Of a stretch of 64,000 nucleotides of DNA, positions 5,620-57,935 are shown in pieces. The stretch's first letter is position 1. Every line of letters starts with the position of its first letter. The notes under the pieces are model-generated. The model searched no databases. It saw only the letters and a program-made list of their open reading frames with translations, and was not told the DNA's origin. Location of the stretch: the NCBI RefSeq assembly GCF_053078305.1, contig NZ_CP166879.1, one strand, 5' to 3'. The position numbers and the translations under genes were made by a program.

Positions 5620-6657
5620 TTAATCATCACCCGCCACGCGGATCACCACTTTGCCGAAGTTTTTACCCTTCAGCAGGCCGATAAACGTCTGTGGCGCATT
5701 CTCTAAACCGTCAGTAATTTCTTCGCGGTAGTGGATTTTATCCTCTTTCACCCATTGCCCCATCTCCTTCTGAAACTCATGGATGCGGTGACCATAATCC
5801 TGAGCGATAATAAACCCTTGCAAGCGAATACGTTTTTTCAGCACCGTTGCCATCAACAGGGGTAAACGATCCGGACCGGGTGGTAGCTCTGTAGCGTTAT
5901 AGCTGCTCACTAAGCCACAAACGGGAATGCGCGCAGATGTATTAAGTAATGGTAGCACTGCATCAAATACCTTACCGCCCACGTTTTCATAATAGATATC
6001 AATACCTTTTGGGCACGCTTTCGCCAGTTGTTCGGCAAAATCGTCCGCGTGGTGATCAAGGCAAACATCGAAGCCTAACACCTCGGTAGCATGGCGGCAT
6101 TTTTCCGCGCCACCGGCTACCCCCACCACTCTGCAACCTTTAAGTTTGCCGATTTGCCCCACCGTCGCCCCCACTGGTCCTGTCGCCGCAGCTACCACCA
6201 ACGTTTCGCCCTCTTTAGGCTGACCGATATCCAGCAGCCCCATATAAGCGGTAAAGCCTGGCATCCCCAGCACACCCAGCGACCACGATGGATTTTGCGG
6301 ATGATCGCCAAGTTTCACCAGATCATCACCACTGGATATGTCATAGTCCTGCCATCCACTGTAGCCCAGCACCCAGTCGCCAGGCTGATAATCAGGATGA
6401 TTCGACTTCACGACACGGCTCACCGTACCGCCGACCATCACGCCGCCAATATCAACCGGCGGTGAATAAGATGGCTCATCGCTCATACGTCCACGCATAT
6501 ACGGGTCCAGGGACAAATAAACTGTGCGCAGTAACACCTGTCCTTCACCCGGTGTGGCGACATCATCTTCTTCAAGACGGAAATTCTCCGGAACCGGTGC
6601 GCCATGCGGACGCGAGGCCAGAACCCAACGTCGATTACGCTGCTTTTGTTGCCCCAT
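5620..6657 (-). CDS. curA: NADPH-dependent curcumin/dihydrocurcumin reductase (MDR-family oxidoreductase)
   Basis: ORF 5620..6750; start trimmed to MGQQKQRNRR (345 aa); nucleotide-binding motif AAATGPVGATVGQIGK. Confidence 0.88.
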   Translation of the reverse strand: MGQQKQRNRRWVLASRPHGAPVPENFRLEEDDVATPGEGQVLLRTVYLSLDPYMRGRMSDEPSYSPPVDIGGVMVGGTVSRVVKSNHPDYQPGDWVLGYSGWQDYDISSGDDLVKLGDHPQNPSWSLGVLGMPGFTAYMGLLDIGQPKEGETLVVAAATGPVGATVGQIGKLKGCRVVGVAGGAEKCRHATEVLGFDVCLDHHADDFAEQLAKACPKGIDIYYENVGGKVFDAVLPLLNTSARIPVCGLVSSYNATELPPGPDRLPLLMATVLKKRIRLQGFIIAQDYGHRIHEFQKEMGQWVKEDKIHYREEITDGLENAPQTFIGLLKGKNFGKVVIRVAGDD

Positions 6658-6837
6658 AATGCTCTCCTGTGCTTTTGGCATGAATCCATCAATAGTAGCA
6701 GGCTCACGGGATTGGTTTTGTTTGCAGCCGTCACATCCCCTCTGCAACACGCAATAATTTCATCGAGGAATCCGTTGCTTCGGGCTGTTTTCGATAGTAT
6801 TGATAACATCATCATCATTATTTTATTGAGGCCAGAC

Positions 6838-7356
6838 ATGTCCATCCGTTTTGCCCGCAAAGCCGACTGTGCTGCCATTGCGGAAATTTATAACCACGCC
6901 GTGTTGTATACGGCGGCTATCTGGAATGACCAAACGGTGGATGCAGATAACCGCATTGCCTGGTTTGAAGCGCGGACCATAGCAGGTTATCCGGTGCTGG
7001 TAAGTGAAGAAGATGGCGTAGTGACGGGATATGCCTCATTTGGCGACTGGCGTAGTTTCGATGGTTTTCGCCATACCGTGGAACATTCGGTTTATGTCCA
7101 TCCCGATCATCAGGGCAAAGGTCTGGGGCGTAAATTGTTAAGCCGATTGATTGATGAAGCGCGGGATTGCGGGAAGCATGTCATGGTCGCCGGGATCGAA
7201 TCGCAAAATCAGGCCTCGCTGCATCTGCACCAGTCGCTGGGATTTGTCGTCACCGCACAAATGCCGCAGGTGGGCACTAAATTTGGGCGCTGGCTGGATC
7301 TGACATTTATGCAGTTGCAACTCGACGAACGCACTGAACCGGACGCGATTGGATGA
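6838..7356 (+). CDS. mnaT: GNAT-family N-acyltransferase MnaT (YncA)
   Basis: In-frame ATG at 6838 (MSIRFARKADCAAIAEIYNH) within ORF 6604..7356; GNAT fold motifs; 172 aa. Confidence 0.88.
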   Translation: MSIRFARKADCAAIAEIYNHAVLYTAAIWNDQTVDADNRIAWFEARTIAGYPVLVSEEDGVVTGYASFGDWRSFDGFRHTVEHSVYVHPDHQGKGLGRKLLSRLIDEARDCGKHVMVAGIESQNQASLHLHQSLGFVVTAQMPQVGTKFGRWLDLTFMQLQLDERTEPDAIG

Positions 7357-7802
7357 ATCAGTCGCTCACCCTTGCCTTTTTGATTGCCGCCGGAATTGGT
7401 CTGGTAGTCCAGAACACGCTGATGGTTCGCATCACCCAGACCTCCTCTACCATTCTCATCGCCATGTTGCTGAACTCACTGGTGGGGATTGTGCTCTTTG
7501 TTTCTATTTTATGGTTTAAACAAGGTATGGCGGGGTTTGGCGAACTGGTGTCCAGCGTGCGCTGGTGGACACTTATACCTGGCTTGCTGGGATCGTTTTT
7601 TGTCTTCGCCAGTATCAGCGGATATCAGAATGTGGGAGCGGCGACAACTATTGCAGTACTGGTCGCCAGCCAGCTGATTGGCGGTCTGGTTCTGGATATC
7701 TTCCGCAGTCATGGCGTACCACTACGGGCGTTGTTCGGCCCAATTTGTGGCGCAATTTTACTTGTGGTTGGCGCCTGGTTGGTAGCCAGACGCTCATTTT
7801 AA
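7353..7802 (+). CDS. ydcZ: Inner-membrane protein YdcZ (DMT-like, DUF606)
   Basis: 149-aa hydrophobic ORF; start overlaps mnaT stop (ATGA). Confidence 0.85.
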   Translation: MNQSLTLAFLIAAGIGLVVQNTLMVRITQTSSTILIAMLLNSLVGIVLFVSILWFKQGMAGFGELVSSVRWWTLIPGLLGSFFVFASISGYQNVGAATTIAVLVASQLIGGLVLDIFRSHGVPLRALFGPICGAILLVVGAWLVARRSF

Positions 7803-8036
7803 TCACAGGATGGTGCCGCCTTTGGTTAACTGTTCATGGCGCGCTTCCATATCTTCTTTATGCTTGCGACCGTGATGAGCAATAGCGGTGCGCAAACGCT
7901 GCTGCTGGGTGTAGCGATCTTCCCGACTTAACTCCGCGTCATCGCTCAGGGCGATTAATAATTCGTTCATATGGGCAATGACGCTCTCTTCAATCGCGGC
8001 ATCCACACGCGCGATGACTTCATCCAGATGCGACAT
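7803..8036 (-). CDS. ydcY: Small protein YdcY (DUF2526)
   Basis: 77-aa ORF, recognised sequence MSHLDEVIARVDAAIEES. Confidence 0.8.
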   Translation of the reverse strand: MSHLDEVIARVDAAIEESVIAHMNELLIALSDDAELSREDRYTQQQRLRTAIAHHGRKHKEDMEARHEQLTKGGTIL

Positions 8037-8121
8037 ACTTTCTCCTTAGCCACTTGTGAAATTTATCGATTCATCCAAATGATATAAGTCTGCGTGGTGC
8101 CGTCAAGCCAGTGAGTAAGAT

Positions 8122-8295
8122 TTAAAACAGTGAAAACAACAGCGCCACCGGGAAACTCATCGGCCATGTTGCCCCCACCAGAAAGGCGCTTAAGAAACGG
8201 ATGCGTTTCTTATCGTGAGAAAGAAACCAAGTGATAAGAAATGCGATTGCTGCCATAACCGCATAAAAAACAAGCATGTGTTGATAGAGAGACAT
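8122..8295 (-). CDS. ortT: Small membrane toxin-like protein OrtT (YdcX)
   Basis: ORF 8122..8343 trimmed to MSLYQHMLVFYAVMAAIAFLITWFL (57 aa, two TM segments). Confidence 0.8.
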   Translation of the reverse strand: MSLYQHMLVFYAVMAAIAFLITWFLSHDKKRIRFLSAFLVGATWPMSFPVALLFSLF

Positions 8296-8489
8296 GTACG
8301 GGCGTCCAGCCAGATGAATAAAACGCGCGCAAATATGCGTCATTTTTTGACGTACATCAAGTTTTTTAACCGGTTTGAGAAAAAAACATCAAACAGCAAC
8401 TTGCCCTTATCCATCTTCAGAATGAGTATTATTGCGGATTTTCTTAACCCGTACTATACACATAGGGGCAATGATAAAAGGTGGCAAAA

Positions 8490-8585
8490 ATGAATGTTTC
8501 CAGTAGAACTGTAGTACTGATAAATGTCTTTGCTGCTGTTGGTTTGTTTACTCTTATCTCTATGAGATTTGGCTGGTTTATTTGA
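8490..8585 (+). CDS. yncL: Small single-TM protein YncL (31 aa)
   Basis: Below the 60-aa ORF-track cutoff; ATG at 8490 preceded by SD aaaggtgg; translation MNVSSRTVVLINVFAAVGLFTLISMRFGWFI; recognised as YncL. Confidence 0.75.
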   Translation: MNVSSRTVVLINVFAAVGLFTLISMRFGWFI

Positions 8586-8607
8586 TGTAGTGATTTTGCA
8601 CGCAGCA

Positions 8608-8642
8608 CGTACTGTCAGAGAAATCAGTGCTCTGACAGTACG
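8608..8642. repeat. Perfect 13-bp inverted repeat (hairpin) downstream of yncL and patD
   Basis: cgtactgtcagag-aaatcagtg-ctctgacagtacg; no adjacent T-tract on either strand. Confidence 0.6.
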
Positions 8643-8681
8643 CAAGATCATCTCATACTCTTACGATCTGCAATATTATCC

Positions 8682-10106
8682 TTAATGTTTAACCATGACG
8701 TGGCGGACGACGGTGTAATCCTCCAGCCCATAAAGTGACATATCCTTGCCGTAACCAGAAAGTTTCTGCCCACCGTGCGGCATTTCACTTACCAGCATGA
8801 AATGGGTATTGACCCAGGTACAACCATATTGCAGCCGTGCACTGACGCGATGCGCCCTGCCCACATCTTTCGTCCATACCGAAGATGCAAGTCCGTACTG
8901 GCTGTCATTCGCCCAGTTCACCACCTGTTCTTCGTTGTCGAAGAGCGTAACACTCACTACTGGACCAAATACCTCTTTTTGCACGATGGCATCGTCCTGT
9001 AATGCGCCAGCCAGCAGCGTCGGCGCATAGTAATAGCCATTACCCTTGCGCTTTTCACCGCCAGTGATCACTTTGATGTGCCCTGTCGCTTTCGCCTCTT
9101 CTACTGCCTTGCTGACGCGTTCGAGATGCGCCAGCGAGCTTAAAGGTCCAAGCTCCGTAGACTCGTCATCCGGCGCACCAGATTTTAACGTTGCCACCGC
9201 AGCACCCAGTTTTTCCACCAGCGTATCGTAAATGCCTTTTTGCGCGTAGATCCGACAAGCCGCAGTACAATCCTGTCCAGCATTGTAATAGCCAAATGTA
9301 CGTACACCTTCGACCACTGCTTCAATATCCGCATCATCAAAAACAATCACTGGCGCTTTGCCACCAAGTTCCATATGAGTACGCTTAATGGACGGCGCGG
9401 TATGGCTGATGATGTGCTCGCCGGTGGCGATAGAGCCCGTCAGCGACACCATCCGCACTTTAGGATGTCCGGTCAGCGGATCGCCCACGGTTTTGCCTCT
9501 GCCAAACAGTACGTTAATCACGCCTGCCGGGAAGATATCTTTCGCCAGCTCTGCCAACTTCAACGCGGTCAGCGGGGTAATTTCTGATGGTTTAAGCACT
9601 ACGCAGTTCCCTGCCGCCAGCGCCGGAGCCAGTTTCCACGCTGCCATCATCAGCGGATAATTCCACGGTGCGATAGAAGCCACGACCCCCAACGGATCGC
9701 GACGGATCATCGAAGTATGACCTTCAAGATATTCACCTGCCGCCAGACCATTCAGACAGCGCGCCGCACCCGCGAAAAAGCGAAAAACATCGACAATCGC
9801 CGGGATTTCATCATTGAACGCACTATGCAGCGGTTTGCCACAATTACGGGACTCCAGTTCGGCAAAAACCTGACCATTTTCTTCGATAACATCAGCCAGT
9901 TTCAGCAGACATTCCGCACGCACTTTCGGCGTGGTTTGCCCCCATTCGGCAAATGCTGCATCTGCCGCGCGCACAGCAGCATCGACCTGCTCTGCGGATG
10001 CCTCGGCAATCTCCAGTAAAACGTCCCCCGTTGCCGGATTATAGACAGGCTGTTTTTCCCCTTCGCCGCTAACCAGTTCTCCGTTAATCAGTAACTTATG
10101 TTGCAT
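8682..10106 (-). CDS. patD: Gamma-aminobutyraldehyde dehydrogenase (aldehyde dehydrogenase family)
   Basis: 474-aa ORF; ALDH motifs MELGGKAP and catalytic-Cys region GQDCTAACR. Confidence 0.92.
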
Positions 10107-10922: not shown

Positions 10923-11853
10923 CGAACGCTCCCAGACGTTTCACGAACGCCAGGTACAGTGCGATGAGAACAATCGGCACCAGGGTGAATGCCGCCGCCA
11001 TCGGCATATTGCCAATCGCCCCCTGCTGGGAATAAACCATATTGCCGATAAAATATCCTGGAGGGCCAACCAGTTGCGGGACGATAAAATCACCCAGTGT
11101 GAGTGAGAAGGTAAAGATAGAGCCAGCGGCAATACCCGGGATCGCCAGCGGCAGCACCACATAGCGAAAGGTTTGTCGTGGACGTGCGCCGAGATCAGCT
11201 GACGCCTGCAACAATGACGGCGGCAAACGCTCAAGCGCCGCCTGCACGGGCAGGATCATGAACGGCAGCCAGATATAGAGAAACACCAGAAAGCGCCCCA
11301 GCCCGGAAGTTGACAGCGTATTGCCGCCCACCGCAGGTAATGTAAGGAACGCAGTCAGCAGTGGTTCCAGCCCCAGATGTTGTAAAAACCACTGAGCCAC
11401 GCCATCTTTTGCCAGCAATAACGTCCAGGCATAGGCTTTAACAATGTAGCTCGCCCACATCGGCAACATTACCGCGATATAAAAAAACGCTTTCATTTTT
11501 CCGCTGGTATAGCGCGCCATATACCACGCCATTGGAAAAGCCAGAATGGCGCTGGCGATAGTGACTGCCACAGCCATAGTCAGCGTGCGGAGAATGATGT
11601 CGTAATTTGCCGGATTAAACAGCGCACGGATGTTCGCCAGCGTCAGTTCCGGCGTTACCGACATGGTGAAATCGTCAAAGGTATAAAAGCCCTGCCATAA
11701 CAGCGTTAGCAGCGAGCCGAAATAGACAATGCCAAACCACATTAGCGGGCCAAGCAGCAGCAAAAACAGCCCCAGCCCCGGATTCCGCCAGAAGAAACCG
11801 GACACCTTACCCAGACCTGGACGTGAAGGTGATTGCAATACGTTCATCGCCAT
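10912..11853 (-). CDS. ydcU: ABC transporter permease
   Basis: 313-aa polytopic ORF; adjacent to ydcT. Confidence 0.88.
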
Positions 11854-12867
11854 TCACCTCTCCTCAACCAGCGGCACCATCACATCACGCGACCAGGAAA
11901 CCATCACCTGTTGTCCGGGCGTGAGCGTGGCAGGCAGTTCTTCGCCTGTCATATTGGCCTGACTCACCAGCAGTTTTTCACCGCCGTTCAATTTCAGTTC
12001 AAAACGAGTTGCCGCGCCCTGATATTGCACCGCCTGGATCGTGCCATTGGCCTGCAGTTCACCTGGGGTGTTGAGACGGATATGTTCCGGTCGTAGTGCG
12101 AAGCTTCCCGTCATGCCACAAAGTTTCTCTGCCATCAGTCCATCAAAAACATTCGATGTCCCAACGAATCCGGCAACAAACGGCGTGCGCGGGCGCATAT
12201 AGAGATCGCGCGGGGAATCGACCTGCTCAATGCGTCCATTATTGAAAACCGCCACACGATCGGACATCGATAACGCTTCGCCCTGATCGTGGGTAACGAA
12301 GATAAAAGTGATACCGAGAGACTGTTGCAGTTTTTTCAGTTCCAGCTGCATCTGCTCACGCAATTTGAGATCCAGTGCGCCGAGCGGTTCATCCAACAGC
12401 AATACGCGCGGTTCATTCACCAATGCTCTGGCGATAGCAACCCGCTGGCGCTGACCACCAGAAAGTTGTGACGGTTTACGTTGCCGTACAAACCCCAACG
12501 CCACTTTCTCCAGCGCCTCTTGCGCCATTGCGTGCCGCTGCTTTTTATTCACGCCTTTGACCATCAGCCCATAGGCGACGTTGTCAAGAATCGACATATG
12601 CGGAAATAGCGCGTAGTCCTGAAAGACAGTATTCACGTCCCGCTCCCACGGTGGCAGATTGCTGGCGGGTTTACCAAAGATAGAGATAGCCCCGCCGGAA
12701 AGCTGTTCGAAGCCAGCAATCAGGCGCAGGCAGGTGGTTTTGCCGGAGCCGGACGGCCCCAGCATAGAGAAGAACTCACCATCTTTTATCGCAATACTGA
12801 CGCCATCTACTGCGCGCACGTCACCGTACAACCGCGAGACGTTGTCAAACTCCACTGCGTACGTCAT
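11854..12867 (-). CDS. ydcT: ABC transporter ATP-binding protein
   Basis: ORF 11854..12924 trimmed to MTYAVEFDNV (337 aa); Walker A GPSGSGKTT, ABC signature LSGGQRQRVAIARAL, Walker B LLLDEP. Confidence 0.9.
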   Translation of the reverse strand: MTYAVEFDNVSRLYGDVRAVDGVSIAIKDGEFFSMLGPSGSGKTTCLRLIAGFEQLSGGAISIFGKPASNLPPWERDVNTVFQDYALFPHMSILDNVAYGLMVKGVNKKQRHAMAQEALEKVALGFVRQRKPSQLSGGQRQRVAIARALVNEPRVLLLDEPLGALDLKLREQMQLELKKLQQSLGITFIFVTHDQGEALSMSDRVAVFNNGRIEQVDSPRDLYMRPRTPFVAGFVGTSNVFDGLMAEKLCGMTGSFALRPEHIRLNTPGELQANGTIQAVQYQGAATRFELKLNGGEKLLVSQANMTGEELPATLTPGQQVMVSWSRDVMVPLVEER

Positions 12868-33216: not shown

Positions 33217-33497
33217 TACCGTTGTCTCTCGTCCAGGTTTACTCCTGATAGAAAGTCATCGGCATTTGACGGTAATTACTTACGACTAAAAGCCTCTTTG
33301 CGTCACATTTTTACAACAATTATTGCAGAGAAGATTAATGCTATTGGAATGAAGAGAGTAACGAATGGCTAAACCGAATGACGAAAAATTCTGGAAAACA
33401 GCACGCAATTTCGTGAAGTGATTATTTCGTCCCTAAGGAAACCTCATAGGATGCCTGCGGGTGCCTGAGACTTTCTGTTTTCAGGCTAACCGGGAAT

Positions 33498-33546
33498 CAG
33501 AAAGACGAAGGCCCCGACCGATATTTCTATCAACCGAGGCCAACGA

Positions 33547-33558
<12 letters not shown>
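33498..33558 (-). ncRNA. sokB: SokB antisense RNA (type I antitoxin), approximate
   Basis: Minus-strand promoter: -35 TTGCCG, 17-bp spacer, -10 TAAGAT (plus coords 33588..33593 and 33565..33570); transcript would be antisense to mokB start and end at a hairpin followed by U-rich UUCGUCUUUCUG; ends not mapped. Confidence 0.5.
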
Positions 33559-33754
<196 letters not shown>

Positions 33755-33999: not shown

Positions 34000-34193
34000 A
34001 TAACCTCCATGGTTTATCGAATCTTATGTTCGATTTGAACGTTATACGCTGGTTTATTTTGATACCGTTGATGAGATCAAAGATCGGGTGAATTGATTAA
34101 AAATAAGCCAGATGGACGTATGGGCAAGGATTATGGTTTTATTTGTCATACAAATAAATATAATAGGCGCTTCCGATGTAGACCCGTATTCTT

Positions 34194-34234
34194 CGCCTGT
34201 ACCACGGGTCGGTTTTAGTACAGGCGTTTTCTTT
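34194..34234 (+). terminator. Hairpin plus T-tract in ydcA-cybB intergenic region (terminator-like, plus-strand polarity)
   Basis: 9-bp stem cgcctgtac/gtacaggcg with 15-nt loop followed by ttttcttt on plus strand; alternative stem gacccgt/acgggtc. Confidence 0.35.
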
Positions 34235-51672: not shown

Positions 51673-54600
51673 TTAGAACGTTTTCTTAAAGTTCAGCATC
51701 ACGCCTTTGTCGCTGATGCCGTCCTCTTTCCAGTGATACGCATCCAGATTCAGCGAACTTTCTTTGCTACTGTACTTCACGCCGACGCTCGCCAGGCTGT
51801 TGATACCGCCGCCCTTCTGACCGTCATCGACGTTAAAGTGCTGGCTGCCTGCCCCTGCAAGGCTTGCCGTGCGCTGGCTCTTGCTGTAGCTCAGGTTCGG
51901 CCCGCCTTCCAGCGTCGCATTCGCGCTCCAGCCGCCTTTCCCTGCGTAGTCCAGTTTCAGCCCGACGATGCTGTCCACCGCCGTTTCGCTGCCGCTGTTC
52001 ATGCTCAGGTTAAAGTCTCCGGCATTGCGCTCCTGATAGCCGCCTTCCAGCGTGTGACGCAGTTTCACTCCGGCGTACGGGGTGATTTTCAGCCCTTCGC
52101 GCGGTTCAAAGGTTTTTGCCCCTTCGCTGCGGAACTCCAGGTACTGCTGTTTCACATCCGTGTCTGCCGTTTTGCTGACGTCGCCGTAAGCCACCGAGCG
52201 GCTGCTGTCGAGGTTATGCACGTCATAGCGCAGGGCGTTGTTCCAGTTCATCCCGTTGTCGAAGAACATCTGGTGCTTCAGGCCGAAGAACTGGCTGTAA
52301 CCACCGGTTACGCCGTTGTCGCCCGCTTTCTGCGCACCGTCGCCATCCAGACGGGCGATACCGTACTCCAGACTCAGGCTCTGGCTTTCGCTCAGGTCAA
52401 CGGTTTTACGCAACGCCAGCATGTCGTACTCGGTGTTATTTCCGAGTTCAGCACGCGGGTCGCCTTTCGCCACCACGTTAAACGCCAGACCGTTGCCCAT
52501 CTTCGGCGCGGCGTCCGCCAGCATGCTGAAGCGGTTGCTCAGCACGCGCGCCTCGCGGAATACCGTGGTTGCCTGGCTGCCGCTCACCTGCTTCAGGGCG
52601 CTGTTCAGTTCGGCAGTAGTGCCGACGTTCAGGCTGGTATACAGCTCGTTGTTGGTGTAACCCGCATCCAGTGCCTTCGCCACATCGTTCACCGAAGCAT
52701 CGGTCGCCACATCGGTGTAGGCGTTTTTGCTCATGGTGACGTCAACGTTGCCGCTGGCATCGGTGCTGCCTTTGGCGGTCCACACCACAGACGTTGAGGT
52801 GATGGCATCGGCGTCGGTCAGGTTGCTGCCTTCCACCACGTTGTCGAAACTGACCGTGGTGTCTGCCGTACCGGCGGCGAAACCGGTGTTGATCCCGACA
52901 CCGTTCATGCTGGCGTTGTTGACCTTGAGCTTACCGGCGCTGCCGTCAACGTTGGTACCGACCACATAACCGTTGAGGTTGTTGCTACCGCTGCCAGTCG
53001 CATCTCCCCCTGTTGTTACGCCACCAGAACTGGTGTTCGGCACTTCCGGCAACGTGTAGTCGGTGTAATGCACTTCGGTATTATTACCGTTGTTGCCGTT
53101 CACCCCTTCCACGTTCACGCTGTCGCCCTGCTTAATCAACCCGGAACCGGTCACGCCATCGGCAATCACCACGGTACCGTTGTTAACGATATGGCCTTGT
53201 GTTCCCAACACACTGAATGCAAAGGAATCGTTAGCATAGATATTAATCGTGCCGTTGTTCTCGATCACCGCGTCTGCGGTAGCGTTGGCATCCAGTTGCA
53301 TACCAATTAACCCGGTATCGGTGGTACCTTCGGTGCCGAGATTGATAACGCCGTTGTTAACCAGTTGTGCGTTTTTATCACCTTCCATCGCCACGGCATT
53401 GTTGCCGCTGATGTTCATCACGCCATCGTTGAGGGCAACATAGTTGTTGTGGGTGAATTTAACTGCGCTGGCGTTGTCTTTATCGAAGTTAATCACCCCG
53501 CCATCCTGGTTCCACAGGAAGGCATCGCTTTCTGTCGCACCAGCGGTACTTACCGCCACAGTGACTTTCGCATCCACCACGCCCTTGTTAATAAACTGGC
53601 TGGCGCCGTCGTCATAGTGAATAGCGCCCGCGCCAAGTGCGGCATCCAGCGTCATTTCACCGGTGTTATATAACGTGGCGTTAGCATTGCTTCCCTGGAA
53701 GCGAATGGCGTTTTTACTGTTATCAAGGATGAGCTTGCCGCTGTTGTTGAACGTTGATTGGTCGTCAATATCCAGCGTCCCGGCATTGTTATTTTCATCC
53801 TGATAACCCATTTTCCAGGTCCCCGCGTTATTCACCACCGCAGAGTTATAGAGAATGGCACCTTTACGCGCCTCGCCGCCTGCAAGGTTATTGAATACCG
53901 CATCGCCCTGAGCGTTAACGCGCGCCGACGCAATACCGCTGTTATTCACCGTACCATCGTGAAGTTGTAAAGTTGACAGGGAACCGGTGTTATTAATTAC
54001 CGCGTTGCTGTTTTTCTCAATTTTTACGACGTCATTAAGCGTTCCGTTGTTATTGAAGGTTCCTCCTTCCAGAGTCACCGTGTTCAATACACCTTCATTG
54101 GTTAACGCACCGCCTTCATTCACGACGATGGCTGAGCTAATGGTTCCGCTCGACTCGTTAACCAGCGCACCATTTTCGAGTATCCTGATCGTTCCATTTT
54201 TAACAGCACCCGCACTGGTGACATCCCCGTTGATAATCGCACCTGACGATAATAATACGGTCTCACCCGCAGAACTTAATACATCGCCATCATCATATAA
54301 ATCGGCAATATAATTATCCGTTGGATTATATTCATCGGCCCCCTGGCAAACGCCAAAGGTACAAATTGTGCCATAGTTGATAATAAGCCCAGTGCCATCG
54401 TTATAGAATGCCTGACCATTTTCCGCGTTAATGTTGATTACGCCTGTCTGGTCATTAATGGCGGTGCCTTCGTGATAAACCGCCATGCCGACGAGTTTAT
54501 TCACACCGAGAGAATCGTTGTAATTTTCATTTTTCTCCAGGTTGATGGTTCCCTGGTTAATGACCGTGTTGGTATTACCATACGCCGCCATCCCCGCACC

Positions 54601-57528
54601 CGCGTTGTAGACGGTAATCACACCATTCTCGTGGTTGGTAGACGTCGCTTTGGTTAATGCTCCATAGTAAGCATCGGTTCCCGAAGCCATTCCCACACCG
54701 AAATCTTTCGCCGTGCTATTTGCGATGTTATTACGCAGCGATGTTTCATCATTTTCATCGACCCACAGCGTATCCAGGGTGATTTGCCCTTCGTTATCCG
54801 CGGTTGATTTATCGATAGCCAACATCCCCACGCTGCCACGACCATACATCTCAATAATGCCCGTTTCGCCGTTCAGAATGGATGACGAGTAGCTGGCAAG
54901 CATACCTGTCAAACCTAATGCTCTGTTATTGAAAGAGGTACCGTCAGACAAGTTCCACTCTGCCGGATAATTCAGCACGCTGTGCTGATTCATCATTTTG
55001 GTGGTCAAGGTGCCATTGTTAACGCCAATCCCCCCGTATTCAACATCGAAGACTTTTGGTGCCGGGTCGGTACCAAAATCGTACATCGCCAGGCCAATGG
55101 ATCCGTTATTGATGACCGTTGAATCTTTATTCCAGGCAGCCGCAAAACCGATATTTTTCAGTTCAACTTCACCGTTATTGGTCGCCTTCGCACCAGAATC
55201 AATACTAATGGTGGATAACGCTACACGATAATAATAAGTGAAAGAATCCACATCACTCATATCAAACGTTGCGTCAGCGCCAATCTCCAGCTCCGCGCCA
55301 TGGCTCAACTGAATGAGATTTTCGAACCCCAGCGGGAACTCGCCGCTGATGGTTGACTCACCATTCAGGTAGACCGAGGAATGCCCATCAACGTTAATAA
55401 GCGGTGTGTCTCCGATACCACGACGAGATGCGGCAGGTTTTGAGCCATCATCCATGACATTTTTTTCACCGACAAAATGAACACCGCCATTAAGCGTAAA
55501 GGTATTGTCATCGCCAGCAATAACAATACCCGCAATGTGTTCCTGAGCACCGTCGTAACTCGCATAGGAACGCGACGTGGTTTCACTATCAGCAACAACG
55601 GTTAACTGACCATCCAGCGTGACGTCGTTGTTGTCACCGCTGATATTTACCCCGGTTGAGGGATTAAAGAAGTAAGGCTGCGCATTATCGGCTTTCTGAT
55701 CTTTATCAACCAGAATACTGCCCGCTATTTCGATAGTATTACCATCACCCGAAACATTAACACCTGTCGCTTCTTGCCCTGTCACATTCAGCCCATAAGT
55801 CGACAGCGTCATGTTGTTATTATCGCCAGAGACATCAAGACCGGTGGAGAAATCCCCAACGTCTAACCCGCCCGCAAGTGAAATATTGGCTTTATCCCCT
55901 GCAACGCTGACACCGGTTCCGGCGTTGGTCGCGGTAATATCACCGACGTTAACAAATGTCGCATTATTACCGTCGATCTGAATGCCGATTGCATTTTCAC
56001 CTGTAGCGGCCTGGCCAACATTGAGGTCGCCCATGTTGATCACGCTGACGCCATCACCATCAAGCAGCATGCCAATAGAGTTATCTTCGATGACCGTAAT
56101 ATTACCTTTGTTGCTAACGAACGTATCATTGCCGTCAACGTCAATACCGTGCGCACCACCGCTTACGTATAAGTCGCCTTCCTGTTTGATGGTGGCACCG
56201 TCACCGACAATTTTCGAGCCAGTGGAATTCTCACCGTCAACGCTCATGGTACCTTGATTATCGACCCGCGCATTATCGCCATTGATAAGGCTACCCGTAC
56301 CACCATTGGTGATGGTCGAGTCGCCCGCAGTGTTCAGCGTAGCATTATCGCCATTGATGATTACTGCGGTACCGCCGTCAACTTCCGTCTCGCCGTTGTT
56401 ATTGATAGTGATATCGTCACCAGTAAGGATACCAACGACCGAACCCTCGCCGATGGCGGTCGTTTTACCGTCGTTGTTGAGGGTGATGTTGTCACCCTCA
56501 ACCGTCATGACAGTACCGCCATTCAGCGCCGTATTGCCGCCCTGATCGGTGATGATCGCATTACCAAAATCAATCGCAGTTCCGGTTGTGCCATCAACAA
56601 CGACACCGGCCTCTTTAGTGATATGGATGAGCCCATCATCGTCGTAGCTCCAGGTGATGCCACCTGCCGTATTTACGCCATCAAAGATGACGGTGTTGCT
56701 GTCGTCATGGACTGTCCAGCCCTTGACTATCGTCGTCAGGCCATCAGGCGCGGTTAAGGTGTAACTCCCATCGGCATTTTGGCTGTAGGTAAAGGTGGTT
56801 TCGCGAATTTTGACGGTTTTCGCGTCCTGATCCCAGGTTACGTCATTTTTATAGACGACAGGATCGTGTTTAACCGGGGTATCGCCACCATCGTCTGGCG
56901 GAACAGGCGTATCACCGCCGTCGTCTGGAACTGGCGTATCACCGCCATCATCTGGTGGAACCGGCGTATCACCGCCGTCATCTGGTGGAACCGGCGTATC
57001 ACCGCCGTCATCTGGCGGAACTGGCGTATCACCGCCGTCATCTGGCGGAACTGGCGTATCACCGCCGTCATCTGGCGGAACCGGCGTATCATCGCCGTCA
57101 TCTGGCGGAACTGGCGTATCACCGCCGTCATCTGGCGGAACTGGCGTATCACCGCCGTCATCTGGCGGAACCGGCGTATCACCGCCGTCGTCTGGCGGAA
57201 CAGGCGTATCACCGCCATCATCCGGAACTGGGGAGTTATTATGGTGGTGATTGTCATCGTCACTTAAGGTATATATAGCAATTCCCGTAGCTACTGCAGC
57301 AAGACCTGCAGCTGCCCATGGTAAAACTGCACTATCTTTATTTTCTCTGCACTCCGCGGATAAATTTTCTAGCTGCTCTTTGCTCAGGGAATGAATATTT
57401 GCCGGACATGTTATCTTACTGGACTTACGTGTTTTTTCGGTTGAGTCGGGTATTGAAGTATCCGCAGCCCATGTCTGGCTACTTAACGCCATGGCAACAC
57501 AAACAGACAATAATTTTTTCCTTTGCAT
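51673..57528 (-). CDS. ydbA: Giant AIDA-like autotransporter (type Va) YdbA, intact
   Basis: ORF 51673..57567; start set at ATG 57528 (MQRKKLLSVCVAMALSSQTWA signal peptide, SD aagga 8 nt upstream); Pro/Asp-rich repeats, long Gly/Asn/Thr-rich passenger, C-terminal beta-barrel ending ...LNFKKTF. Confidence 0.88.
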   Translation of the reverse strand: MQRKKLLSVCVAMALSSQTWAADTSIPDSTEKTRKSSKITCPANIHSLSKEQLENLSAECRENKDSAVLPWAAAGLAAVATGIAIYTLSDDDNHHHNNSPVPDDGGDTPVPPDDGGDTPVPPDDGGDTPVPPDDGGDTPVPPDDGDDTPVPPDDGGDTPVPPDDGGDTPVPPDDGGDTPVPPDDGGDTPVPPDDGGDTPVPDDGGDTPVPPDDGGDTPVKHDPVVYKNDVTWDQDAKTVKIRETTFTYSQNADGSYTLTAPDGLTTIVKGWTVHDDSNTVIFDGVNTAGGITWSYDDDGLIHITKEAGVVVDGTTGTAIDFGNAIITDQGGNTALNGGTVMTVEGDNITLNNDGKTTAIGEGSVVGILTGDDITINNNGETEVDGGTAVIINGDNATLNTAGDSTITNGGTGSLINGDNARVDNQGTMSVDGENSTGSKIVGDGATIKQEGDLYVSGGAHGIDVDGNDTFVSNKGNITVIEDNSIGMLLDGDGVSVINMGDLNVGQAATGENAIGIQIDGNNATFVNVGDITATNAGTGVSVAGDKANISLAGGLDVGDFSTGLDVSGDNNNMTLSTYGLNVTGQEATGVNVSGDGNTIEIAGSILVDKDQKADNAQPYFFNPSTGVNISGDNNDVTLDGQLTVVADSETTSRSYASYDGAQEHIAGIVIAGDDNTFTLNGGVHFVGEKNVMDDGSKPAASRRGIGDTPLINVDGHSSVYLNGESTISGEFPLGFENLIQLSHGAELEIGADATFDMSDVDSFTYYYRVALSTISIDSGAKATNNGEVELKNIGFAAAWNKDSTVINNGSIGLAMYDFGTDPAPKVFDVEYGGIGVNNGTLTTKMMNQHSVLNYPAEWNLSDGTSFNNRALGLTGMLASYSSSILNGETGIIEMYGRGSVGMLAIDKSTADNEGQITLDTLWVDENDETSLRNNIANSTAKDFGVGMASGTDAYYGALTKATSTNHENGVITVYNAGAGMAAYGNTNTVINQGTINLEKNENYNDSLGVNKLVGMAVYHEGTAINDQTGVININAENGQAFYNDGTGLIINYGTICTFGVCQGADEYNPTDNYIADLYDDGDVLSSAGETVLLSSGAIINGDVTSAGAVKNGTIRILENGALVNESSGTISSAIVVNEGGALTNEGVLNTVTLEGGTFNNNGTLNDVVKIEKNSNAVINNTGSLSTLQLHDGTVNNSGIASARVNAQGDAVFNNLAGGEARKGAILYNSAVVNNAGTWKMGYQDENNNAGTLDIDDQSTFNNSGKLILDNSKNAIRFQGSNANATLYNTGEMTLDAALGAGAIHYDDGASQFINKGVVDAKVTVAVSTAGATESDAFLWNQDGGVINFDKDNASAVKFTHNNYVALNDGVMNISGNNAVAMEGDKNAQLVNNGVINLGTEGTTDTGLIGMQLDANATADAVIENNGTINIYANDSFAFSVLGTQGHIVNNGTVVIADGVTGSGLIKQGDSVNVEGVNGNNGNNTEVHYTDYTLPEVPNTSSGGVTTGGDATGSGSNNLNGYVVGTNVDGSAGKLKVNNASMNGVGINTGFAAGTADTTVSFDNVVEGSNLTDADAITSTSVVWTAKGSTDASGNVDVTMSKNAYTDVATDASVNDVAKALDAGYTNNELYTSLNVGTTAELNSALKQVSGSQATTVFREARVLSNRFSMLADAAPKMGNGLAFNVVAKGDPRAELGNNTEYDMLALRKTVDLSESQSLSLEYGIARLDGDGAQKAGDNGVTGGYSQFFGLKHQMFFDNGMNWNNALRYDVHNLDSSRSVAYGDVSKTADTDVKQQYLEFRSEGAKTFEPREGLKITPYAGVKLRHTLEGGYQERNAGDFNLSMNSGSETAVDSIVGLKLDYAGKGGWSANATLEGGPNLSYSKSQRTASLAGAGSQHFNVDDGQKGGGINSLASVGVKYSSKESSLNLDAYHWKEDGISDKGVMLNFKKTF
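56877..57228. repeat. 27-bp coding tandem repeat, about 12 copies, encoding P(P)DDGGDTPV
   Basis: Near-identical 27-nt units (ccgccgtcatctggcggaaccggcgtatcac and variants) visible directly; one 24-nt unit and one G-to-D variant; generates artefactual ORFs on the opposite strand and other frames. Confidence 0.9.
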
Positions 57529-57935
57529 ATAAAATTCCTTAGATCTAGACCGTGCGTAACAAGCCATGCAGAATTTGAAGATAAATCGTAGTAAATATTC
57601 ATAGTGAAATAAGCAATAAAGAAATGCTTATATAATTCACAAAATCAATATTAAAATCAGGCAAGTAAAAGCATACAAAAAAACAGTTGATGGAATTATA
57701 TTCCACAAAAAACTCACTTCAATCTAAAAATTAACGACAAAAAACAAAAACACACTAATAATTCATTGACGCTGCATATATATTTTGTGATTACATATAT
57801 ATTGGTAATGATTTGTTATTTAAGGGAAGGATATATAAGGTTTTTGTAGAAATACCCACGGTAATTAAGCATGCTAACGTCAGTTTAAATACTGTAAAAG
57901 ATCATTAATAGATACATTTTGTAGCCAACTATAAT

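Follow-up and report, generated by a model that had tools for sequence, protein, structure and literature searches.

An uninterrupted gene at the ydbA locus that probably encodes a type Va autotransporter of the BigA/YdbA family

Introduction

Salmonella BigA shares with the protein described here its BigA_N, BigA_beta and autotransporter domains. It was reported to combine a passenger of the AIDA-I type with a NalP-type barrel, and BigA-type autotransporters show a 'mix-and-match' pattern (PMC3419190). Between the signal peptide and the remaining protein, bigA carries a variable-number tandem repeat (VNTR), STTR3, which is a Salmonella typing locus in multilocus VNTR analysis (PMC5183578). 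For Escherichia coli, a survey reported that about 42% of the genomes in phylogroup A contain a full-length ydbA (PMC4951805). In K-12, the paaY/ydbA intergenic region has been listed as one of 78 'promoter islands', which are poorly transcribed but bound by both RNA polymerase and H-NS (PMC3661553), and the ydbA transcript is increased in an rpoZ mutant (PMC5811629). Here, we report on a long minus-strand gene at the ydbA locus within a stretch of 64,000 nucleotides (contig NZ_CP166879.1 of RefSeq assembly GCF_053078305.1), referred to as the window throughout. The gene is intact and lies beside pdxI (ydbC), and our analysis makes it likely that its product is an autotransporter of the classical monomeric kind (type Va) that belongs to the BigA/YdbA family. 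This protein would most likely serve in surface adhesion or aggregation, and H-NS probably represses its gene.

Results

A complete reading frame with the domain content of a type Va autotransporter

The initial annotation of this stretch had described one uninterrupted frame of 1951 residues with a signal peptide, Pro/Asp-rich repeats, a Gly/Asn/Thr-rich passenger of beta-helix-like periodicity and a C-terminal barrel ending in Phe, and all of these elements were recovered (Table 1). The underlying open reading frame (ORF) is single, spans 51673..57567 on the minus strand and yields 1964 residues when counted from its first ATG. We prefer the start at 57528 because a Shine-Dalgarno sequence (AAGGA, 57536-57540) is located 7 nt 5' of it, whereas the earlier ATG lacks one; the stop codon occupies 51673-51675. 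The resulting 1951-residue translation is identical to RefSeq WP_044192109.1 and GenBank KFD74254.1, while the protein search returned no database record for the 1964-residue form. Beyond the complete genomes, intact genes abound: the same search gave more than 100 distinct full-length variants of 1844-1986 residues with 94-99% identity, and one cluster at 90% identity holds 1619 members. Public databases already contain this protein, and an intact copy is nothing new. Since the exact protein stands in RefSeq next to over 100 full-length variants, and given the survey figure for phylogroup A, intactness as such is unremarkable.

The C-terminal part of the protein carries the features of a translocator. 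The Pfam Autotransporter beta-domain (PF03797) was matched at residues 1723-1922 with an E-value of 5.1e-18, so the profile search that could have revealed a missing translocator domain instead returned one, and the last residue of the protein (...VMLNFKKTF) is aromatic, as in outer-membrane beta-signals. An AlphaFold2 (AF2) model of the last 470 residues was built with 14 family sequences. It contains 12 long strands at model residues 218-468 (about 1699-1949 of the protein), and its predicted local distance difference test (pLDDT) score ranges from about 53 to 89 by 10-residue block within the barrel, being higher in the N-terminal two-thirds. The top Foldseek matches of this model in the Protein Data Bank (PDB) were the translocators of AaaA, EstA, EspP, NalP and BrkA, with E-values from 2e-7 to 3e-5. 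The linker in front of the barrel includes a candidate pore-spanning helix, ATTVFREARVLSNRFSMLADA (residues 1653-1673, window 52510-52572), which is a predicted helix in a part of the model where pLDDT is below 50. Three family members from other Enterobacteriaceae (P0138, P0154 and P0173) end on ...KKTFR, a non-aromatic terminus that is unusual for an outer-membrane beta-signal.

Residues 305-1500 consist of 13.9% Gly, 12.1% Asn and 9.2% Thr, and residues 305-700 show a periodicity of 24-25 residues (z about 4 compared to shuffled sequences), as would be expected for the beta-helical passenger of a type Va autotransporter. Taken together, the domain content and the predicted folds fit a classical type Va autotransporter. 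The presence of both BigA_N and BigA_beta places the protein in the BigA/YdbA family. Against NCBIfam NF033178, the equivalog model of Salmonella BigA, it scored 1099 bits at a curated cut-off of 3400, the best stretch covering only the C-terminal third; the protein is therefore a BigA relative and not a BigA equivalog. The window protein gave no AIDA, pertactin or PATR matches in Pfam and no sequence matches in the PDB.

Table 1. Features of the ydbA-locus gene and of its upstream region in window coordinates.
Feature	Residues	Coordinates	Strand	Basis
Complete coding sequence (1951 aa and stop), probable BigA/YdbA-family type Va autotransporter	1-1951	51673..57528	-	exact match to WP_044192109.1
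AT-rich upstream intergenic region (407 bp, 27% GC)		57529..57935	-	composition; Shine-Dalgarno sequence; one promoter-like site
Predicted Sec-type signal peptide	1-21	57466..57528	-	by inspection; kept across family alignment
Conserved N-terminal 'head' (about 78 residues)	22-99	57232..57465	-	alignment of 16 family sequences
In-frame 30-bp tandem repeat (VNTR), 12 x PVP(P)DDGGDT	100-217	56872..57231	-	Tandem Repeats Finder and translation
BigA_N domain (Pfam PF25784)	224-304	56617..56859	-	E 6.2e-32; AF2 pLDDT about 90
Gly/Asn/Thr-rich passenger, predicted right-handed beta-helix; includes Gln1062 (54343-54345)	305-1519	52972..56616	-	
BigA_beta sandwich domain (Pfam PF25783) at the passenger/translocator junction	1520-1603	52720..52971	-	E 5.7e-25; AF2 pLDDT 63-84
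Linker	1604-1722	52363..52719	-	
Predicted autotransporter beta-barrel translocator, ending ...VMLNFKKTF	1723-1951	51676..52362	-	PF03797, AF2 and Foldseek

Different passengers on a conserved translocator at the ydbA locus

The gene is flanked by ydbH-ynbE-ydbL on one side and by pdxI(ydbC)-ydbD-ynbABCD on the other, as it is in ES5 and in O157:H7. Synteny on the pdxI-ydbD side extends to ES5, O157 and K-12 alike, and the position next to pdxI(ydbC)-ydbD together with collinear homology identifies the gene as the positional orthologue of ydbA. The upstream neighbour differs, being ydbL in the window, ES5, O157:H7, A16 and others, but paaY in K-12. The feaR-feaB-tynA-paa phenylacetate cluster, which lies upstream of ydbA in K-12 (with paa genes, ending in paaY, in the record examined), is absent from the window. 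A functional link to ydbH-ynbE-ydbL was considered and rejected, since these genes come to lie beside ydbA only through the absence of the fea/tynA/paa cluster from the window.

The initial annotation had taken the gene for an intact form of K-12 ydbA, which it described as being split by IS2 and IS30. The split itself is present in an MG1655-derived RefSeq record, where ydbA appears as two pseudogene fragments with IS2 and IS30 transposase genes between them (an arrangement of ydbA_1, IS2, IS30 and ydbA_2 that we take to be b1401-b1405), whereas the window gene is uninterrupted. When rejoined, the K-12 fragments give a protein of 2007 residues with the same architecture, and both proteins display a signal peptide, a Cys pair, a hydrophobic segment, a DDDxHHH patch, a Pro-rich linker, BigA_N, a beta-helix, BigA_beta and a barrel. 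The insertion sequence (IS) junction of K-12 corresponds to a position near residue 786 in the window protein. However, the identity between the two is 54% overall, amounting to 87-97% over residues 1401-1951 and to 23-66% per 100-residue bin over residues 1-1400; at the DNA level, megablast against K-12 aligned only the last third, at about 85%. In addition, the Pro-rich linker of K-12 is short and non-repetitive, whereas that of the window protein consists of 12 decapeptide repeats. What the window carries at the ydbA locus is thus an intact gene of the other, O157-type allele class and not a K-12 gene freed of its insertions. Judging from these comparisons, two or more passenger alleles that diverge strongly from each other occur at this locus, joined to a conserved translocator, which fits the pattern ascribed to BigA-type autotransporters (PMC3419190).

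The O157:H7 lineage carries the same allele class with a nonsense codon

A search of 5426 complete E. coli genomes gave 367 that contain the allele class of the window at a coverage of at least 80%, and most of the best 60 of these 367 matches are O157:H7 or O55:H7. Their gene and that of the window belong to the same class, with 94.6% amino acid identity over the full length, the same flanks and a near-identical upstream region. The window gene is intact, but the O157:H7/O55:H7 gene has fewer repeats and is split into ORFs of 1034 and 819 residues by a single CAG-to-TAG change at the codon equivalent to Gln1062. The two halves are annotated as 'proline-rich domain-containing protein' and 'autotransporter outer membrane beta-barrel domain-containing protein'. 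An 80-nt probe across the Gln1062 codon matched 345 complete genomes, 25 of which are identical to the window while 320 show one mismatch. The one-mismatch matches listed are all O157-type strains or carry truncated-fragment annotations, and the 25 exact matches include one strain labelled O157:H7 (TR01).

Fragmented annotation may also occur where the DNA is intact. In ES5, the DNA contains one uninterrupted ORF of identical length, whose product is 99.2% identical to the window protein, but RefSeq marks this locus through its Prokaryotic Genome Annotation Pipeline (PGAP) as two 'incomplete' pseudogene fragments (6409-9591 and 10978-12264 of the ES5 locus sequence). The locus is annotated in the same way in 1504D004 and 1604D011. 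In the case of ES5, the fragments look like an annotation artefact.

Alleles of this class show purifying selection and a mosaic pattern of divergence

Seven alleles of the window's class were compared at the codon level, giving 21 pairs. Neither the window allele nor any of the five non-O157 alleles taken from other genomes is interrupted, and four of these five are annotated as a single coding sequence. The ratio of nonsynonymous to synonymous divergence (dN/dS) was between 0.05 and 0.12 in every one of the 21 pairs, at dS values of 0.05-0.25, and it was low in each protein region with enough substitutions. On these alignments, the whole protein, passenger included, is under long-term purifying selection, which argues against a decaying gene. 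Divergence across the alleles is mosaic, with blocks free of any difference beside blocks with a dS of 0.1-0.4. Window and ES5, for example, do not differ within residues 1-304 and 1604-1951 but reach a dS of 0.115 in residues 305-900, and window and A16 are identical in BigA_N but show a dS of 0.34 in linker and barrel. This pattern indicates that intragenic recombination is frequent.

The N-terminal region comprises a conserved head and an in-frame repeat

By inspection, the signal peptide consists of a basic n-region (MQRKK), a hydrophobic core (LLSVCVAMALS) and a TWA-A cleavage motif (SQTWA followed by AD). We rejected the reading of LSVC as the lipobox of a lipoprotein, as the Cys lies 10 residues from the Met inside the hydrophobic core, position -1 is a Val and several family members lack this Cys. 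A Pfam match to the extended signal peptide region (ESPR) was absent from residues 1-1100, and with a signal peptide of only 21 residues the protein does not qualify as an ESPR autotransporter.

The signal peptide is followed by the conserved head. In the alignment of the 16 family sequences, which share 30-50% identity, C41, P42, L48, L56, C60, W71 and G75 are invariant. W71 and G75 open a Gly/Ala-rich hydrophobic segment (residues 67-88, window 57265-57330), after which there is an Asp/His/Gly-rich patch, here DDDNHHHNN. The segment is the most hydrophobic 19-mer of the entire protein (Kyte-Doolittle mean 1.86), and its equivalents score 1.5-2.08 in 16 of 16 family members, usually exceeding their own signal peptides. 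AF2 gave no usable model of residues 1-107 (pLDDT below 50), and no paper addressing the head was found in the literature. The family bearing it is narrow, with 62 representatives at 50% clustering among 1.84 billion proteins, and all organism-named representatives are Enterobacteriaceae (E. coli, E. albertii, Citrobacter, Enterobacter and [Enterobacter] lignolyticus). Neither such a head nor a Pro-rich stalk or a BigA_N module is known from UpaB, pertactin, Ag43 or AIDA-I, beta-helical type Va adhesins that have no detectable sequence homology to the window protein.

The stalk behind the head is encoded by the VNTR, for which Tandem Repeats Finder reported a 30-bp unit in 11.8 copies with 91% matches (56872-57222). 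Close E. coli homologues have between 2 and 13 copies of the decapeptide, and copy number explains most of the length differences among them. On/off phase variation through the repeat was rejected, as a unit of 30 bp keeps the frame whatever the copy number. The position of the repeat parallels that of STTR3 in Salmonella bigA (PMC5183578); an MLVA locus corresponding to the E. coli repeat was not identified in the literature search.

The region upstream of the gene is very rich in AT

The initial annotation had also drawn attention to an AT-rich upstream region as a sign of silencing by H-NS. The composition was confirmed: the lowest 300-bp stretch of this region has 25.7% GC, which is the lowest value in the window (mean 49.7%, standard deviation 5.1%) and 4.7 standard deviations under the mean, in line with the AT-rich promoters of H-NS-silenced genes. 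One sigma-70-like site, TTGAAG-16-TATAAT at 57722..57695, was identified as a consensus match; promoter-like matches in the region are fewer than, or no commoner than, in shuffled sequence. Strains ES5 and O157 carry a nearly identical region, to which that of K-12 aligns only loosely. By analogy to the K-12 promoter island and from the base composition, H-NS silencing of the window allele is plausible.

Along the gene, the GC content is 56-63% in the 3' third (window 51700-53050) and 43-51% in the middle of the passenger, compared to 27% upstream. The 3' third also contains antisense ORFs on the plus strand (51733-52797, 354 residues, and others), which are probably by-products of base composition and not genes. 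Elsewhere in the window, and unrelated to the gene at the ydbA locus, the sok antitoxin RNA (110 bits, 33459-33610) and the small RNA RydC (92 bits, 34170-34233) were matched on the plus strand at the Rfam gathering level.

Discussion

So far, our findings favor an intact gene for a type Va autotransporter. Its intactness, its domain content, the relationships among the alleles and the purifying selection are direct results of the analysis; from the established type Va pathway we infer how its product may reach the surface. The signal peptide would direct passage through Sec, and the C-terminal domain of about 230 residues would be folded by the beta-barrel assembly machinery (BAM) into a 12-stranded barrel in the outer membrane. 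The beta-helical passenger of about 1200 residues would then be threaded to the surface with its C-terminal end first, so that BigA_N, the variable Pro/Asp-rich stalk and the conserved head end up at the far tip. A surface adhesin or aggregation factor would be the most likely role. Transcription probably starts within the AT-rich upstream region and is probably repressed by H-NS under laboratory conditions. K-12 holds the other passenger allele, broken by IS2 and IS30, and the O157:H7 lineage the window's allele, broken by the nonsense codon.

Several observations weigh against this interpretation. The species can dispense with the gene: a one-base difference, consistent with the O157 stop, is present in 320 of the 345 probe-matching genomes, and at the sensitivity of megablast the coding sequence went unmatched in about half of the complete genomes. 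The C-terminal AF2 model is only moderately confident (mean pLDDT 60.5), and PDB sequence searches with the C-terminal 475 residues and with two family profiles returned nothing meaningful, hence no solved sequence relative. A conserved, transmembrane-like segment shortly after the signal peptide fits awkwardly with simple Sec translocation of the passenger. Finally, our literature search found neither work on the function of YdbA in E. coli or of BigA in Salmonella nor expression, localisation or binding data for the window protein or its close relatives.

The ORF may be intact but cryptic, that is, permanently silenced or decaying and without any contribution to the phenotype of the strain. 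Such a state would be in line with the repeated decay of the locus by insertions in K-12 and by a nonsense codon in the O157/O55:H7 lineage, with its patchy recovery among complete genomes, and with an upstream region typical of H-NS-silenced genes (PMC3661553). The low dN/dS at a dS of up to 0.25 speaks for selection on the full length instead, and more than 100 full-length variants differ in length mainly by their in-frame repeat number; we therefore regard a cryptic gene as rather unlikely. It is less probable still that the passenger is no adhesin and acts as a toxin, an enzyme, an ice- or polysaccharide-binding protein, an immune-evasion factor or in some other surface-bound or secreted capacity. 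While the lack of functional data in the literature leaves room for such activities, scans of the 1951 residues against Pfam and NCBIfam gave no catalytic domain, and the closest neighbours include the adhesins and autotransporter passengers SRRP, UpaB, PfbA and pertactin, a comparison that covers a model only to about residue 400 and is weak either way.

The head allows for a further alternative, in which residues 67-88 anchor the protein in either the inner or a target membrane and the N-terminus is tethered or inserted through the Pro-rich stalk instead of forming a free tip. The hydrophobicity of the segment, the conservation of its Gly/Ala-rich W-x3-GG-x-AA... stretch in all aligned family members and the extended Pro-rich linker that comes next are compatible with such a topology. 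Nevertheless, a stop-transfer helix after a cleaved signal peptide would strand the passenger, and the barrel with it, in the cytoplasm, an outcome that cannot be reconciled with a conserved translocator; moreover, the segment is Ala/Gly-rich and only marginally hydrophobic with acidic flanks on both sides, AF2 gave no confident structure for it, and the stalk has anything between 2 and 13 repeats in close relatives, which speaks against a span of fixed length. We consider an anchored N-terminus very improbable. As a stop-transfer helix at this position would block export of the passenger, the segment is more readily pictured as being translocated to the distal tip or as acting transiently at the inner membrane. 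With little confidence, we put forward that the head is an unrecognised functional module of this one autotransporter family, composed of a disulfide-capable CP...C motif, a Trp-initiated Gly/Ala-rich transmembrane-like segment and an Asp/His patch, all borne by the variable Pro/Asp stalk. It might form a membrane-inserting or self-associating tip, or a transient inner-membrane tether with the task that falls to the extended signal peptide in other autotransporters of very large size.

With an intact autotransporter gene as the preferred reading, some consequences concern the handling of the locus. Since two or more strongly divergent passenger alleles go by the name ydbA, typing its presence or absence by the K-12 sequence will mislead. 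Some genomes have intact copies that PGAP presents as fragments of a pseudogene, so that pseudogene counts at this locus are unreliable and would come out too high. The in-frame 30-bp VNTR could be used for typing, much like STTR3 of Salmonella. For the strain itself, the practical weight is small, as its repertoire of surface proteins grows by one intact, uncharacterised member. For autotransporter research, strong purifying selection on a functionally uncharacterised protein, together with its odd conserved head, makes the family a reasonable target, and the head is the only part that might repay experiments.

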